Origin: Octopus sinensis
Lineage: Eukaryota
Direction: 5' to 3'
NCBI RefSeq assembly: GCF_006345805.1
Contig: NC_043014.1
Span: 11,780,001-11,844,000, forward strand
Length of the DNA stretch: 64,000 nt
Shown: piece by piece, positions 6,015 to 56,304 of the stretch
Position numbering within the stretch: the stretch's first letter is position 1
Layout: each line of letters opens with the position of its first letter
Translations under genes and position numbers: made by a program
The notes under the pieces: generated by a model
Databases searched by the model: none
What the model saw: the letters and a program-made list of their open reading frames with translations, nothing else
Told to the model about the DNA's origin: nothing

Positions 6015-7512
6015 ATGGGACGAAGATTGCAAATCGCCTAAAAACAACACTGATGGAGATTGAAAAAAGCCTGCAACAATCCTATATGATGGAAAGAGCA
6101 GACAAAGAACCCTGAGTTATTAAAAAAACATTAAGTCAAACCCAAAGGCCTTCTTTCATTACGCCAAAGAAACAGCATCAGTATGCTGCAAGATAGGACC
6201 TCTCTTCCAAAAGGATGGCTCCCTCACAGATAGTCCAACCAGGATCAGTGAGGTACTGAATGACCAGTTCAAAAGTGTCTTTACCACCCCATTGGAACAC
6301 AGACAAGTGAACGAACCAGTGGACTTTGCCGTCTCACCTATAACCAGCGGGGCAGTTACGATGGAATACATTGACATTAGCGAAGAAGATATACTACTAT
6401 CCATAGATGAGGTCCATAGATGAGGTGGACGCAAACTCAACTGCTGGTCCTGATGGTTTCCCAGCAATCCTCCTCAAATCTTGTAAGCGTGCCCTGACAA
6501 AACCCCTCCAGATTCTCTTCCAGAGCTTTCTTGAAAATGGCAGACTGCCAAGCAAGCCGAAGGAGGGAATAATATTCCCAATTTATAAAGGGGAAGCAGA
6601 GCAGATGCTAAAAACTATAGGCCTATCTCTGACTTCACACATCAGCAAAGTTTGACAAATTATGACTGGGTGTTGAGGCAGTTACTCAACAACTCAAACA
6701 TGGATGTAGTATACCTTGATTTTGCAAAAGCTTTCGACAAACTGGATCATGGTATGATATGCCTCAAACTGCGTGATCTCGGCATCGCTGGAAAACTTGG
6801 GGAGTGGTTACATTACTTTCTGAAAGATAGAAGTCGGGCAGTAGTGACCAATGGCGCCACGTCAATGAAAGCACAAGTAGTGAGCGGTGTTCTACAAGGC
6901 ACTGTCTTGAGACCACTGCTTTTCATAGTGGTTCTCTCAGATATACCCTCAACATCCCGGATAGCCACCCTTGCTAGCTACGCAGACGATACGACAGTCT
7001 CGCAGAAAATACAGAACCCCAGCGATGTTGCACATTTGCAGCAGGAGTTGGACTCAATTTACAGATGGGCTGAGGATAATAATATACAGTTTAATGCTGA
7101 AAGATTCCAAGCCCTGCGCTTACCAGCGTCCAAAACTGGATATGAAACTTACAGGGTACACTGGTCCACAGGGAATTACAATCCCAGAGCCTAAATCAGT
7201 GAGGGACCTGGGTATCAACATGAGTGATGATACCTCTTTCCAAGTGCACATCACCAGGATGGCGACAAAGTGCAGACGACTGGCTGGATGGATCCTGAGA
7301 ACATTCAGAACCAGAGATAAGGAAACCATGGTGGTCCTCTTGAGAACATTCGTCCTCAGTCGCCTGGATTACTTCTCCCAGCTATGGTCATCCAACAGTG
7401 TAAAATTAACAGCGGACCTTGAAGCAATCCAGCGAAGCTTTACTAAGAAGATCGTCTCTTTGCAACAGCTCAACTACTGGAAAAGGCTGAAACAGCTAAG
7501 ACTCTACTCTCT
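6015..7512 (+). pseudogene. CR1/Jockey-like LINE reverse transcriptase, frameshifted and internally deleted
   Basis: Motifs AGPDGFPA, VVYLDFAKAFDKLDHG, SGVLQGTVL.PLLF, YADD, RDLG, WILRTF, LEAIQRSFTK spread over several frames. Confidence 0.92.
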
Positions 7513-8484: not shown

Positions 8485-8723
8485 GATACAGATAAGGAAA
8501 TAATTTTATTCTCAAACGCAGAATAATGCTAATAATATAGCATGAACAAGATAAACTATCCATATTTTGCAGAAAAATCTGTCGGCGACCAGTCATGAGA
8601 CACGAACTCACATGCCTGGCCGCCGATAGATTTTCCTGCAAAATATGGATAGTTTATCCTGTTCATGCTATATTATTAGCATTATCCTGCGTTTGAGAAT
8701 AAAATTATTTCCTTATCTGTATC
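8485..8723. repeat. Near-perfect ~240-bp palindrome next to (TA)n
   Basis: gatacagataaggaaataatttt... pairs with ...aaaattatttccttatctgtatc over about 110 bp with few mismatches. Confidence 0.9.
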
Positions 8724-8956: not shown

Positions 8957-9144
8957 ATGAAAGAATGGAGTCGAACGACGATTTAACAAAATTCCTTTAT
9001 TCTCGACACATGTTTCGAAGACTGCATATTCTTAATTCCGAAGGCATAATGCACCCTTTATTCCTTCGGAATTAAGAATATGCAGTCTTCGAAACATGTG
9101 TCGAGAATAAAGGAATTTTGTTAAATCGTCGTTCGACTCCATTC

Positions 9145-9150
<6 letters not shown>
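8957..9150. repeat. Perfect 88-bp-arm palindrome, probable inverted Penelope-like terminus
   Basis: Arms 8957-9044 and 9063-9150 are exact reverse complements. The right arm has GAAAC-ATGT-GTC (3' half of a hammerhead) and runs into (TA)n. Confidence 0.85.
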
Positions 9151-9434: not shown

Positions 9435-9767
9435 AACGTTCCATCTGAAAAGGAAAGTCGGGCTGAAGAGAAGGTGTCTGTCAGAGTGTACGTACAAAAA
9501 AAAATGGATACGTGTTGCCCGGATGCTGGGGAGTGAAAGGCCTTGTGCGAATACGGTGTAAGGACTTCCAAAAGGAGTCAGTTAAAAAGACAAGGCTCGT
9601 GGGGTCGGAGCACACTTGTTTTTTTTAACCTACCTCATATTGTCCTTTTATTGTTTGTATTGTAATTTGTGTTTTATCGGTTTTATAATCATTTTTATAT
9701 ATAATTTTATAACCTCATTCGATGTACATGACCCCTCTATGTTGGCCCTTTATGGGCAATAAAGAAT
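9435..9767 (+). mobile_element. Tx1/L1-like LINE 3' fragment
   Basis: Reads TFHLKRKVGLKRRCLSECTYKKKWIRVARML, then a T-rich 3'UTR ending cccctctatgttggccctttatgggcaataaagaa. Confidence 0.55.
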
Positions 9768-13387: not shown

Positions 13388-13803
13388 AGGCAGCGAGCTG
13401 GCAGAAACGTTAGCACGCCGGGCGAAATGCTTAGCGGTATTTCGTCTGCCGCTACGTTCTGAGTTCAAATTCGCTGAGGTCGACTTTGCCTTTCATCCTT
13501 TCGGGGTCGATAAATTAAGGACCAGTTACGCACTGGGGTCGATATAATCGACATAATCCGTCTGTCTGTCCTTGTTTGTCCCCTCTGTGTTTAGCCCCTT
13601 GTGGGTAGTAAAGAAATAGATATTTCATCTGCCGCTACGTTCTGAGCTCAAATTCCGCCGAGGTCGACTTTGCCTTTCATCCTTTCGGGGTCGATAAATT
13701 AAGTACCAGTTTTGCACTGGGGTCGAAATAATCGACTTAATCCCTTTGTATCTCCTTGTTTGTCCCCTCTATGTTTAGCCCCTTGTGGGCAATAGAGAAA
13801 TAA
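13388..13803 (+). mobile_element. Family-A SINE dimer
   Basis: One head and two body-tail units. TSD agatagctgtttaagtg on both sides. Confidence 0.9.
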
Positions 13804-14774: not shown

Positions 14775-15369
14775 GGCGGCGAACTGGCAGAAACGTTAGC
14801 GCGCCGGGCGAAATGCTTAACGGCATTTTGCCGTTACGTTCTCAGTTCAAATTCCGCTGAGGTCGACTTTGCCTTTCATCCTTTCGGGGTCGATAAATTA
14901 AGTACCAGTTTCGCACTGGGGTCGATATAATCGACTTAATCCGTTTGTCTGTCCTTGTTTGTCCCCTCTGTATTTAGCCCCTTGTGAATAGTAAAGAAAT
15001 AGGTATTTCATCTGTCGTTACGTTCTGAGTTCAAATTCCGCCGAGATCGACATTGCCTTTCATCCTTTCGGGATCGATAAATTAAGTACCAGTTACGCAC
15101 TGGGGTCGATGTAATCGACTTAATCCGTGTGTCTATCCTTGTTTGTTTTGTCTGTGTTTAGCCCCTTGTGGGTAGTAAAGAAATAGGTATTTCATCTGTC
15201 GTTACGTTCTGAGTTCAAATTCCGCTGAGGTCGACTTTGCCTTTCATCCTTTCGGGGTCGATAAACAAAGTACCAGTTACGCACTGGGGTCGATATAATT
15301 GACTTAATCCGTTTGTCTGTCCTTGTTTGTCCCCTCTATGTTTAGCCCCTTTGTGGGCAGGAAAGAAAT
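14775..15369 (+). mobile_element. Family-A SINE trimer (184-bp repeat units)
   Basis: Junction aagaaatagg|tatttc at ~15001 and ~15185. Confidence 0.9.
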
Positions 15370-36649: not shown

Positions 36650-37015
36650 ATTATATACACACTCATATTTATATTATATATTCTTTTATTCTTTTACTTG
36701 TTTCAGTCACTTGACTGTGGCACATGCTGGAGCACCGCCTTTAGTCGAGCAAATCGACCCCAGGACTTATTCTTTGTAAGCCTAGTACTTATTCTATCGG
36801 TTTCTTTTGTCGAACCGTTAAGTTACGGGGACGCAAACACACCATGATCGGTTGTCAAGTGATGGTGTGGCGGATAAACACAGACACACAAATACATATA
36901 TATAGAAACGGCTAATTAGTATTATGAGTTCTCGACCCCGAAAGACAAAATTGAAAAAAACATACGCATGTACACATAGGTGCAGGCGTGGCTGTGTGGT
37001 AAGAAGCTTGCTTCC

Positions 37016-38730
37016 TGTATAGCGTTTTGTTTAGTTCGACTGCGGTCTTTGCAAATAACACACGTGTTTTTTTGGTTGTCTTGGCGGTGCGACGTTTTTC
37101 CTCTTGTTTAATGGAGAGGCGTCGGAAGAGGACCTGTGAAGGCCTGAATTGTTCAGAATTTGCAAACTGCCCTTCTTCGAACTTTGTGTCGTCTGAGGAG
37201 GAGATTGTGGAGTGTTTAAAAAGAAGAGAAGAGAAAATGGAGGCAAAAAGTTACGCCGCAGCGGCAGAGGAAAAGAGTGAAGACGTGAGTCTAGAGGATT
37301 TGAGTAAATTTAAAAACATGCTTAAAAGGGAGGGGAACCAAGTGAAAGTGTTCCCCTCCTCCAAAGAAGTTTTAAAGGAGAAAAGAGAAAAAACATAATT
37401 TACAGGGCGTACTCTGAAGCAGCAAAGAGAATTGAAGTTATGTCGACGGTGCAAGTCGAAAAGGTACTTAGACCAATCTGGTAAGGGATTTCCTACATTG
37501 CCAGAGGAAAAAAGTTTGTAACGGTAGAGGTGCAGTTCCGGGAGGTAGCTACCACCAGGCTGCACTCAGCAACACCGCTGAGAACTGATGAAGTGATTCT
37601 TTTACCCGTATACCTTGGGAGACGCGCTTCTAGGATTAGGGTGGAGGAAATACCACGAGAAATGGATGCAGCCTGGCTGGTGACTGCCATACTGTTAAGC
37701 TTGGAGGAGAAGCTGGTGGTCCTGCAGGCCACCAAAACACCCCACTGGAACTGGCAAGGACAGAGCATTGATAAGGTGGTACAATTTGCAGAGGAAGATA
37801 TTGAAAAGATGGTCGAGACCATCACGGTCGGATGTGCAAAATTGAAGGTCAGAGTGGAATGGAGGATTCCGTGGTGCTATAAATGTGGCCTAAAAGCCCA
37901 CATTAGAGCAGATTGTCCTCCACCACTTGAGAAGGCTAAGGAGAGACAAGAGAATGAGAAAGTGACTGGTGCTCCACTACTCGCGAAGGTTGAGGAAAAG
38001 GAGAGTGAAGCGGCACCACAGATAAAGACCAGTACCAGCGTCGAAACAGAGATGGACAACGAATGGGAAACAGCTGGGGAAAAGATAAGAGGGGAAAAAA
38101 GGCACATACTGTAAAGGAGGATCCCCGTCCCACACTCACCCAGCTCCCACTCTACCCCAACCACTCCCTACAGATACTACCCTACCTGACATAAACACAA
38201 GCACACAGGAGCCTCAAATTTTCACACCCTTGTCCTTAGAAAAATATTTCATAATGTTCAGCCGAGACAATGAAGAAGTGTATAACGAAATAGACTCGTG
38301 GGACAGAATCATAAAAGTAGACGTATCAGAAGTAAAAGGGATGCCTTAGTACCTTCGTTGTGTCGTGGCAGACCCAGCATACATATCTAGATTAAAGGAC
38401 TTTGAGGAAAACCATAACTATGAGTGCTGGGTCAAGAAATTGGACACCAGCTCAATGACTAAAAAAGTGTTTATGATATTTTAATGAAACACAATGTAAA
38501 TATCGTTCGGAGGAATGATAACTAGCTGTGGCTAATATTTGTGTTATAAACTAGTGTTTAAAAATAATATTATATTAACAGGTTCAATGAAGTCGCTCGG
38601 AGGTGGGGCCGAACAGCCTCATTTCATCTTTCATTATATTAATTCATTCTTTCAATTCGTTTTGTTTTTTTGTCCCCACTTTGTGTTGTCCCCTGCTATG
38701 TAAGGCCTTCATGGCCAATTTCATGAAATA
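37016..38730 (+). mobile_element. ORF1-only (half-LINE) non-LTR element with a CCHC zinc knuckle
   Basis: 15-bp TSD aagaagcttgcttcc (37001-15 and 38731-45). Disrupted gag-like ORF with SYAAAA and CYKCGLKAHIRADC (37875-37916). No RT or EN found. 3' end ...gaaataaa. Confidence 0.8.
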
Positions 38731-39286
38731 AAGAAGCTTGCTTCCCAGCCACATGGTTCAGAGTTCAGTCCCACTACGTGGCACCTTGGAGAAGTGTCTT
38801 CTACTATAGCCTCGGGCCGACCAAAGCCTTGTAAGTGGATTTGGTAGACGGAAACTGAAAGAAGCCCGTCGTATATATGCATATGTGTGTGTGTGTGTGT
38901 GTGTGTGTCTTCGTGTCTGTGTTTGTCCCACCACCACCGATTGACGACCGGTGTTGGTGTGTTTACGTTCCCTTAACTCAGTGGTTCGGCAAAATTGACC
39001 GATAGAATAAGTACTAGGCTTTAAAAAATATAAATGCTGGGGTCGATTTGTTCGACTAAAACCCTTTAAGGTGGTGCCCCAGCATGGCCGCAGTCAAATG
39101 ATTGAAACAAGTAAAAGGTAAAAGTTTAGGAGTGGCTGTGTGGTAAGTGCTTGCTTACCAACCACATGGTTCCGGGTTCAGTCCCACGGCGTAACACCTT
39201 GGACAAGTGTCTTCTACTATAGCGTCGGGCCGACCAAAGCCTTGTGAGTGGATTTGGTAGTCGGAAACTGAAAGAAGCCCGTCGTA

Positions 39287-54830: not shown

Positions 54831-56304
54831 CTTCATCTTGCCGTCTCATTCCGACTTAGAAAGGTCACAGAACAAAACTGTAACATTAAATCAAGCACGG
54901 GCAACCTTTATGAAGAAAACGGGCCGCATGAGACAAGGCTCATCATCAGGCATACTACACTACTTCAAAAAGCTACGCGGGCCGCAGTTTACCCACGACC
55001 GCATGAAACTGAATTGATGTCCTGTTGTTCTTTAGTTCCAGGTCAGATCCAGATCTAAAATAAAAACCGTTCTAATATCAAAACCATTCCACAATCATCC
55101 TGTTTTTCTTGGTGTGTAGGAGCAGGCAGCATGCTTATGGAGTAAGATCTCACTTCCCACCCACGGAGTTTCGAATTCAGTTCCACTGTGCAGTACCTTA
55201 GGCAAGACTCTTTCACTATTGCCCCGAGAAGGCGGCGGGCTGGCAGAAACGGTAGCACACCGGGCGAAATGCTTAGCGGTATTTCGTCTACCGCTACGTT
55301 CTGAGTTTAAATTCGCCGAGGTCGACTTTACCTTTCTTCCTTTCGGGGTCGATTAAGTAAGTACCAGTTACGCACTGGGGTCGATGTAATCGACTTAATC
55401 CGTTTGTCTGTCCTTGTTTGTCCTCTATGTGTTTAGCCCCTTGTGGCTAGTAAAGAAATAGATATTTCGTCCGTCGCTACGTTCTGAGATCAAATTCCGC
55501 CGAGGTTGACTTTGCCCTTCATCCTTCCGGGGTCGATTAGTACCAGTTACGCACTCGGGTCGATGTAATCGACTTAATCCGTGTGTCTGTCCTGGTTTGT
55601 CTCCTCTATGTTTAGCCCCTTGTGGGCAATAAAGAAATAAATATTGCCTCGAGTAAACCAAAGACTTTCGAGTGGATTTGGTAGATTTGATGAACTAAAA
55701 GCGGCCCTTCGTATATGAATGAGCGTGCATCCATCCATCCATCCATCCATCCATCCATCCATCCATCCATCCATACATACATACATACATACATACATAT
55801 CAATCTTGAGGAATTAGGTTTCTCATTAGGTTTCCGGGTTCAGTGTCACTATATCCTCGGGCTGACCAAAGCTTTGCGAGTGGATTTGGTAGACAGAAAC
55901 TGAAAGAAGCCCGCCGTATATATAAGACACACATACATACAGACACAAATACATACACACACATATATATGTATGTATGTGTGTCGTGTTTTTGAGTTCG
56001 TGTGCTTACGTTCCTGTAACTTAACGGTTCGGCAAAAGGTTCCGATAGAACAAGTACTGGGCTTACAAAGTACAAGTCCTTAGGTCGATTTCTTTGATGA
56101 AAACCCTTTAAGGTGATGCTCCAGCATGGCTAAAGTCAAATGACTGAAGAAGGTAAAGGAATAAAAGAACATACTTGTACGTATGCTTTTCATTATATAT
56201 ATATATATATATATTTTTAATTGTTTTTCAGTGCAAATATTTTTTTAACTTTTTATTATAATCTATAGTTTGTAGTCCTGTCTCTGTCTATTTGTCTGTC
56301 TATA

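Follow-up and report, generated by a model that had tools for sequence, protein, structure and literature searches.

An ORF1-only retroelement family of Octopus sinensis specific for one site in a SINE head and probably mobilized by Tx1-like LINEs

Introduction

In eel UnaL2, a stem-loop lies in the 3′ tail that is shared by LINE and SINE. Among LINE-SINE pairs with a shared tail, a short 3′ hairpin is common to the LINE and its clients (PMC4494074; PMC5786205). ORF1-only derivatives of LINEs are known from L1, Jockey and CR1, and several origins have been reported for HAL1; HAL1 of mammals, Ag-Sponge and HeT-A are non-autonomous, encode ORF1p only and have a LINE-like 3′ end (PMC5753468; PMC5786205). 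Tx1 elements with other transposons as targets and SINEs as clients are described in PMC4494074, where the target-specific members of the Tx1 clade include Tx1 in Tx1D, Tx1-Mar in Mariner-N4_AMi with SINEU clients, Keno, Kibi and Koshi. At Drosophila telomeres, an ORF1-only element and its RT-bearing partners (HeT-A, TART and TAHRE) make up mixed arrays, head to tail and in one orientation (PMC5537684).

The octopus element described below shares the listed properties of HAL1, Ag-Sponge and HeT-A, but differs from them in its derivation from a probably Tx1-like lineage, in an ORF1p with the predicted order RRM-RRM-CCHC, in the use of one SINE site and in its occurrence in mixed stacks (PMC5753468; PMC5786205). 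As in the target-specific Tx1 elements, its candidate helper has an APE-RT-zinc finger ORF2, the preference for one repeat lies far above the 20% criterion, and clients share the target; the known Tx1 targets, by contrast, are a DNA transposon, an LTR element, an RNA gene and a microsatellite, whereas the target here is a SINE head and the client is a protein-coding half-LINE rather than a SINE, with a specificity near 100% at one base (PMC4494074). The likeness to the Drosophila telomere arrays lies in the head-to-tail association of ORF1-only and RT-bearing partners; the octopus arrays, however, are short, internal and apparently held by a regenerated endonuclease target, and a host function is not evident (PMC5537684). 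Unlike in LINE-SINE pairs, the hairpin is clade-wide and accompanies many targets, and it is the variant of the hairpin rather than its presence that follows the helper (PMC4494074; PMC5786205). In the available text of PMC13282606 and PMC8967140, octopus L1-Tx1 elements are listed without detail of a site or a half-LINE, and the literature covered contains no ORF1-only Tx1 derivative and no cephalopod Tx1 element targeting a SINE head; Repbase, Dfam and subscription journals lay outside this scope, and the families may already be catalogued. What appears to be new within this scope is the combination of an ORF1-only retroelement and target-specific Tx1 at a single SINE-head base, each being separately known.

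Results

The insertion and its host SINE

The window analyzed here is a stretch of 64,000 nucleotides of the O. sinensis genome (NC_043014.1, positions 11,780,001 to 11,844,000), the features of which are collected in Table 1. The term half-LINE family denotes copies related to the element in the window, and the site is the 15-bp target in the head of the family-B SINE. A 1.7-kb insertion with a 15-bp target-site duplication inside a SINE head had been described in the first-pass annotation, and its coordinates and duplication hold to the base: the flanks of the element share no exact match longer than the 15-bp AAGAAGCTTGCTTCC, and they are the two halves of a single SINE head. The window contains 14 heads of the family-B type. 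Half-LINE copies begin at a single point directly after the target, mostly with GGTA or GGTT. Self-comparison of the window revealed neither a second copy of the element nor terminal repeats. ORF2-like matches occur in the window only at 6407-7122 and 9439-9516, with none inside the element; the former is the remnant of a more distant RT from another LINE clade, 30% identical to the ORF2 of the two-ORF LINE L061.

Table 1. Positions of the element, its host SINE and related repeats in the window.
Feature	Positions	Strand	Basis
Host SINE head (family B), 5′ part; A-box-like motif at ~36989-36999	36979..37000	+	
Left target-site duplication (15-bp target), AAGAAGCTTGCTTCC	37001..37015	+	exact match
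ORF1-only non-LTR retroelement, full length, 1715 bp	37016..38730	+	sequence and copy alignment
5′ UTR; T-runs at 37025, 37067, 37095	37016..37110	+	
Broken ORF1, ATG at 37111; probably ~450 codons originally	37111..38475	+	third-position excess in all parts
ORF1 N-part	37111-37395	+	
ORF1 further frame	about 37371-37466	+	
ORF1 core	37485-38111	+	
Single CCHC zinc knuckle	37875..37916	+	sequence
ORF1 C-terminal coding remnant, absent from the first-pass annotation	38206-38472	+	
3′ UTR and tail	38476..38730	+	
Tail hairpin GGCC-TTCAT-GGCC, 4-bp stem, 5-nt loop	38704..38716	+	covariation
Right target-site duplication, AAGAAGCTTGCTTCC	38731..38745	+	exact match
Host SINE remainder: B-box-like motif at ~38763-38771, body, microsatellite, tail	38746..39125	+	
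5′-truncated 3′ end of a related two-ORF LINE, generic tail, not helper	9436..9766	+	
Two family-A SINE tail units, generic tail (2/23 in window)	13569..13801	+	
Tandem family-A body-plus-tail units	13569-13801, 14955-15369, 55414-55638, 59549-59133, 34108-33764, 30699-30471		

The A- and B-box-like motifs of the host SINE head were recognized by eye, and from these motifs the head may be tRNA-derived; ARAGORN reported 0 tRNA genes in the head, and Rfam gave no tRNA match, only microsatellite stretches being matched. In 18 element copies, the left and right copies of the target duplication share no private change (0 shared of 13 and 28 deviations), and the data therefore fit a true duplication and an element-borne target sequence alike. 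In four contig sets, no locus-specific joint representing an empty orthologous site was found, the comparison being swamped by SINE copies; half-LINE family members at 85-95% likeness are present in all four. A-to-G hyper-editing of the window copy was considered and rejected (6/318 A against 4/176 T>C). Elsewhere in the window, family-A SINE copies often have two or three tandem body-plus-tail units, and two long, near-perfect inverted repeats seen by eye at 8560-8650 and 8970-9150 are of a foldback or MITE-like kind.

A family of copies that lack ORF2

A search of the 2.72-Gb genome with the element gave at least 64 matches of 69-100% identity from the best 40 of 547 candidates; the searches, which score the best 40 or 150 candidates, favor full-length copies. 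Thirty loci were fetched, and the removal of two identical duplicates left 28 distinct loci, in 18 of which both ends of the copy are present (lengths of 1552-2154 bp, with a median of 1713). None of these 18 copies has a tblastn match to the full ORF2 at E<=1, and no ORF2 lies within 1.5 kb downstream of the best 30 ORF1 matches. The first-pass annotation had placed the element in an ORF1-only class comparable to HAL1 and HeT-A and had named ORF2 in other copies as the contrary outcome; absence of ORF2 in 18/18 full copies and 30/30 best ORF1 matches bears out that class. The constant length of ~1.7 kb that had been expected holds for the median only: in a search with the 3′ end (last 169 nt), 7/30 copies are shorter (834-1558 bp) with both ends intact, and the length of the half-LINE is thus modal, not constant. 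Seven copies with internal deletions keep both ends and the duplication (L252, L260, L255, L269, L272, L275 and L256; L numbers denote loci), and the similar deletions of L252 and L260 (1335 and 1331 bp) may mark a non-coding subfamily.

The expectation of an intact ORF under selection was likewise borne out in part. No unbroken ORF1 was found among the 18 copies, the longest frame being 293 aa. From the core to the knuckle in 44 copies, however, variants present in at least three copies are synonymous and other in a ratio of 136 : 128, as against 48 : 257 for singletons (p 2e-19), and the omega-like ratio is 0.31 for shared variants vs 1.75 for singletons; that the ratio for singletons exceeds 1 is probably artefactual, because synonymous sites are already occupied by shared alleles. 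The same synonymous enrichment is found in the N-part, the linker and the C-part (p 2e-4, 4e-3 and 2e-4). ORF1 in the source lineages of the half-LINE was under purifying selection. The window copy deviates at 55/907 conserved columns and is roughly 17 million years old at the rate of 0.0036 quoted in PMC13282606. That the window element is a dead copy of a genuine ORF1-only family is well supported.

The predicted ORF1 protein

The N-part and the core of ORF1 in the window are separated by frameshifts and stops. The core is 43% identical to the ORF1 of L061, an intact two-ORF LINE (E 1e-46); the knuckle matches Pfam zf-CCHC at E 0.15 in the window copy, and zf-CCHC was matched in 11/16 aligned relatives. 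Structure was predicted for an intact natural ORF1-only relative of 441 aa (L217:2342-3664; L217 = G000:C2:169361500-169371400), which is 35% identical in the core and stands in for the window copy. In its AlphaFold model (mean pLDDT 67, core blocks 71-93), a pair of beta-alpha domains with tandem-RRM matches in Foldseek (best E 5e-6) precedes the knuckle, after which a disordered linker and a small domain follow. On this model, the product of ORF1 in the window is predicted to be a type I LINE ORF1p with two RRMs and one CCHC knuckle, type I being defined by RRM and CCHC (PMC5203782). From the protein family, an RNA chaperone function may be expected. The small alpha/beta C-terminal domain after the linker (L217 residues 358-439) is under selection and kept in relatives; its single-sequence model has a pLDDT of 56 (best VIA Z 3.9). 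Among database proteins of 242-772 aa, the L217 ORF1 has one homolog, a 242-aa O. sinensis protein.

The disrupted protein with a single CCHC knuckle was thus seen correctly at the outset; the term "gag-like" used for it was not, as the RRM-type structure matches read as type I LINE ORF1p. An LTR retroelement or retrovirus was rejected, given the 15-bp duplication, the LINE-type tail and the lack of a terminal repeat in the self-comparison; the Foldseek matches listed for the L217 model are RRM proteins, and sequence matches to retroviral proteins cover the knuckle only. HAL1 proper, an L1 derivative whose ORF1p is of type II (with a coiled coil, one RRM and a CTD), was also rejected, because the CCHC knuckle and two predicted RRMs are those of type I; no Transposase_22 match was found in 16 aligned members.

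Specificity for one site

Among the 28 distinct loci, all 22 readable 3′ ends and 24/25 5′ ends lie at the site, for which the chance of a match is 0.4% per 23-mer, and the query contained just 5 target bases. When the search was made by the 3′ end alone, 29/30 ends were at the site, the exception having a degenerate target; this search added 20 new loci, 20/20 of them at the site. The half-LINE family is site-specific for a single 15-bp SINE site, a property missed in the first-pass annotation. The genome contains 27,103 exact matches to a 33-mer pattern of the empty host head, and exact tail-target junctions number 165 and 389 for two target variants, which are represented by 88 vs 6 host SINEs, with 6 mixed, in the first 100 exact matches. 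The half-LINE family is mostly on the rarer, apparently older target variant (49/55), and B2 LINEs (see below) and a far-diverged ORF1-only family occupy both variants; drift of the target tracked by the endonuclease is possible. This far-diverged family (L167-L196 and L221-L250; ~25% core identity) is the commonest occupant of the site, with 18/30 older-variant junctions. Truncated inserts of site users, of 37, 58, 147 and 296 nt, lie between two target copies and point to independent priming events.

A covarying hairpin in the tail

In plain alignment, the element tail scores 42, 37 and 36 with family-A SINEs (44920-, 13756+ and 55597+) and 35 with the LINE end at 9729+, as compared with 26-34 in a control of 20 shuffled tails. 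The likeness to the family-A SINE and the ~9730 LINE noted in the first-pass annotation is modest by this measure and firm as a covarying hairpin. Common to all tail classes are CTnTGT, a hairpin of 4-bp stem and 5-nt loop, and an end rich in A. In 70 distinct tails, the stem cells are paired at 87.7%, 68 with a change on both sides, counts that are inflated by kinship of the tails and obtained with the register anchored on the last base of the loop; 0/500 shuffles are as high, and slid controls give 20-46%. The fifth stem position is unpaired (pairs in 2/62 site users and 3/88 generic tails). The hairpin is likely to be the RT recognition signal.

The classes differ in the variant of the hairpin. 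Stem pair 3 is G-C in 55/62 site users and C-G in 69/88 generic tails, and site users carry about ten extra bases between the hairpin tail and the target. Identity of the last 36 nt to the half-LINE is 0.75 for the LINE subfamily B1, 0.76 for B2, 0.61 for the 9730 family and 0.58 for family A; with 0.75 against 0.76, tail identity singles out neither helper. The aligned 3′ ends are thus homologous, as had been anticipated, but those of the 9730 LINE and the family-A SINE carry another variant. Since the hairpin is clade-wide, the element, the 9730 LINE and the family-A SINE are relatives and likely not clients of one enzyme; the latter two bear the generic hairpin and probably depend on other clade members.

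LINEs at the site

A LINE end upstream of one half-LINE copy (L011) led to 30 LINE 3′ ends, all of which are at the site. Full-length two-ORF LINEs with the target duplication are L162, L166 and L308, the last being a B1 element of 5356 bp. Subfamily B1 was first met downstream of half-LINE copies, and 20/22 of its 5′ ends lie at the site. In an ORF2 tree of 28 rows, from which two proteins were left out for short coverage, B1 and B2 make up a single clade (100/100, 13 rows) with the 9730 family outside. The ORF2 of L061 (1131 aa) contains Exo_endo_phos, RVT_1 and zf-RVT, and the B-lineage copies align along it; no unbroken ORF2 was found among 32 stretches of B-lineage LINEs, but L166 has an open endonuclease frame. 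The helper or source LINEs would accordingly be classed as Tx1-like from their two ORFs, an APE-RT-zinc finger ORF2, a predicted type I ORF1p and a target preference, which in site users exceeds the 20% of flanks in one repeat used in PMC4494074. Among 120 listed RT matches is one named "Transposon TX1 uncharacterized 149 kDa protein" (39%), which is of short coverage and outside the ORF2 tree. The nearest named proteins are from Argonauta hians for the RT (63%) and from O. sinensis for ORF1.

Longer copies of the 9730 LINE family carry ORF2. None of 20 ends of this family is at the site (25 examined, 5 without a readable tail; 2 of the 20 motif matches look spurious), and neither is any of 23 family-A SINE tails. 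Other related two-ORF LINEs have fixed sites of their own: L062, L064, L066 and L220 in another repeat, with the same flank in four loci, and L065 and L074 inside another RT-bearing retroelement.

Descent of ORF1 and of the tail

Following a quick preliminary tree, 44 of 101 rows were retained for the ORF1 tree; L068, L083 and L076 were omitted, their adjoining tail being that of a SINE. The half-LINE family (100/97) lies with 12 generic-tail elements and the L072 group in a branch of 27 rows that is ORF1-only (94/98, not starred). Groups defined by tail and target, picked after the first tree and compared under the simpler LG+G4 model, were examined by AU tests, which rejected the union of the family with the L072 group, which uses the same site (p-AU 4e-5), with the B1 ORF1 (p-AU 2e-5), and of the three site-using ORF1-only groups as one clade (p-AU 6e-55); union with all six B-lineage LINE ORF1 rows was not rejected at 5% (p-AU 0.055). 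In the core, the half-LINE shares 50-54% identity with ORF1-only elements of generic tail, 46-48% with generic LINEs and 36-44% with LINEs of the B lineage, and at the nucleotide level it resembles the latter LINEs over the final 47 nt only, bar two short weak matches. Exchange of tails among ORF1-only lineages, direction aside, appears likely in view of the AU rejections.

Stacks of half-LINE and B1

Elements are stacked head to tail, with a single target copy between units. With the query left out, B1 5′ ends lie directly after a half-LINE tail in 10/21 cases (8 found by script and 2 by eye) and directly after another ORF1-only family in 1/21, whereas in pattern-sampled junctions the half-LINE accounts for 1/30 (script) to 3/30 (eye) and the other ORF1-only family for 18/30; the difference for the half-LINE is significant (Fisher p 1e-7 to 3e-6). 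The B1 3′ ends are followed by the host SINE in 6/6 cases, a small number. A single master composite as the source of the B1 pairs was rejected, as the paired half-LINE tails are not a cluster (0.74 alike, n 12, vs 0.77 for others). The pairing may reflect coupled integration by template jump or re-priming, preferential use of the site that is regenerated ahead of B1, or several co-transcribed composites. The first of these is weakly favored because B1 heads are capped more often than half-LINE heads (11/21 vs 5/24, p 0.03); the other two remain.

Discussion

The element in the window is very probably a dead copy of an ORF1-only family that inserts at a 15-bp site in a SINE head and is mobilized in trans by Tx1-like LINEs sharing that site. 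Copying and insertion in trans by the ORF2p of these LINEs is likely from the shared site, tail and stacking, and the most likely helper is the subfamily B1, which often has the half-LINE family directly upstream. The following steps are read from sequence comparison. The half-LINE would be transcribed from its own 5′ end, and its RNA packaged by its own RRM-RRM-CCHC protein. The helper ORF2p would bind the tail hairpin and the A-rich extension typical of site users, nick the SINE head and prime reverse transcription, with the RNA end AAUAAAGAA able to base-pair at the beginning of the target. Duplication of the 15 bp would recreate the site, so that later elements could stack head to tail.

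The first-pass annotation identified the class of the element correctly and misassigned its partners. It proposed that the RT of the 9730-type LINE serves both the half-LINE and the family-A SINE through one tail, and the homology of the hairpin in all three accords with that view, as do generic-tail ORF1-only relatives in the same ORF1 clade, some of which stack with a generic-tail LINE in the family-A head. Such young stacks, at a fixed site and with up to six ORF1-only units behind the LINE, are seen in L063, L070, L217 and L218, and a trio of the proposed kind therefore likely exists in the genome with other members. For the element studied here the proposal is improbable: neither partner was found at the site in the samples above, their last 36 nt are less like the half-LINE than those of the site-sharing LINEs, their stem pair 3 is the opposite one, and the 9730 family stands apart from the ORF2 clade of those LINEs. 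Still less credit can be given to hitch-hiking, in which a single SINE was invaded once and was amplified thereafter as a unit with the element, mimicking specificity. The 5′ end is complete in nearly every copy, as such amplification would have it, and occupied host SINE bodies and element UTRs diverge to a similar degree (0.79 vs 0.76), so that divergence alone is compatible with co-amplification. Against this, the site is common to two LINE subfamilies and to three ORF1-only groups that are not one clade; mixed tandem stacks keep one target copy between units; short truncated inserts are flanked by both target copies; distances among elements and among hosts do not match significantly (Mantel rho 0.19, p 0.14, n 15); and similarity among occupied hosts is 0.79, as against 0.84 between them and empty SINEs. 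Pol III terminates at T-runs, and the early T-runs of the element would stop a Pol III transcript of the SINE. An isolated internal deletion in a LINE at the locus can be set aside almost with certainty, since dozens of copies of similar length are without ORF2 and the shared ORF1 variants bear the mark of selection, although internally deleted LINEs with both ends do occur at the site (L106, L178 and L186).

As to origin, the family may simply be a deletion derivative of the SINE-B-targeting LINE lineage that inherited tail and target without any swap. The compatibility of the family with the six B-lineage ORF1 rows at 5% would allow this, and ORF1 evolves fast, the rows are broken copies and the ORF1-only branch falls short of a star; but the rejected unions with the B1 ORF1 and the L072 group, a core closer to generic-tail ORF1-only elements than to B-lineage LINEs, and nucleotide similarity to the latter that is nearly confined to the tail make such a descent unlikely. 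Beyond mobilization in trans by site-sharing LINEs, a more far-reaching and somewhat doubtful reading can be given: the ORF1-only elements would be old, self-standing parasites of LINEs that switch helper and target by swapping their last 50 bases, and the half-LINE would be integrated together with B1, always upstream, by an RT jump or re-priming from the finished 5′ end of the helper onto half-LINE RNA in a mixed ORF1p particle. If true, SINE landing pad, LINE and half-LINE would make up a three-layer system that builds internal arrays like those of HeT-A and TART.

Part of the L1-Tx1 load of the octopus is hidden within SINEs, and automated repeat annotation would split or mislabel such copies. 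The family also offers a natural test set for two questions, namely why an element retains its ORF1p while needing the ORF2p of another, and by what means a short hairpin at the 3′ end allots clients to one of several closely related RTs. Concrete swaps to assay are provided by the variants of the hairpin, by the two variants of the SINE target and by the stacking specific to one helper.
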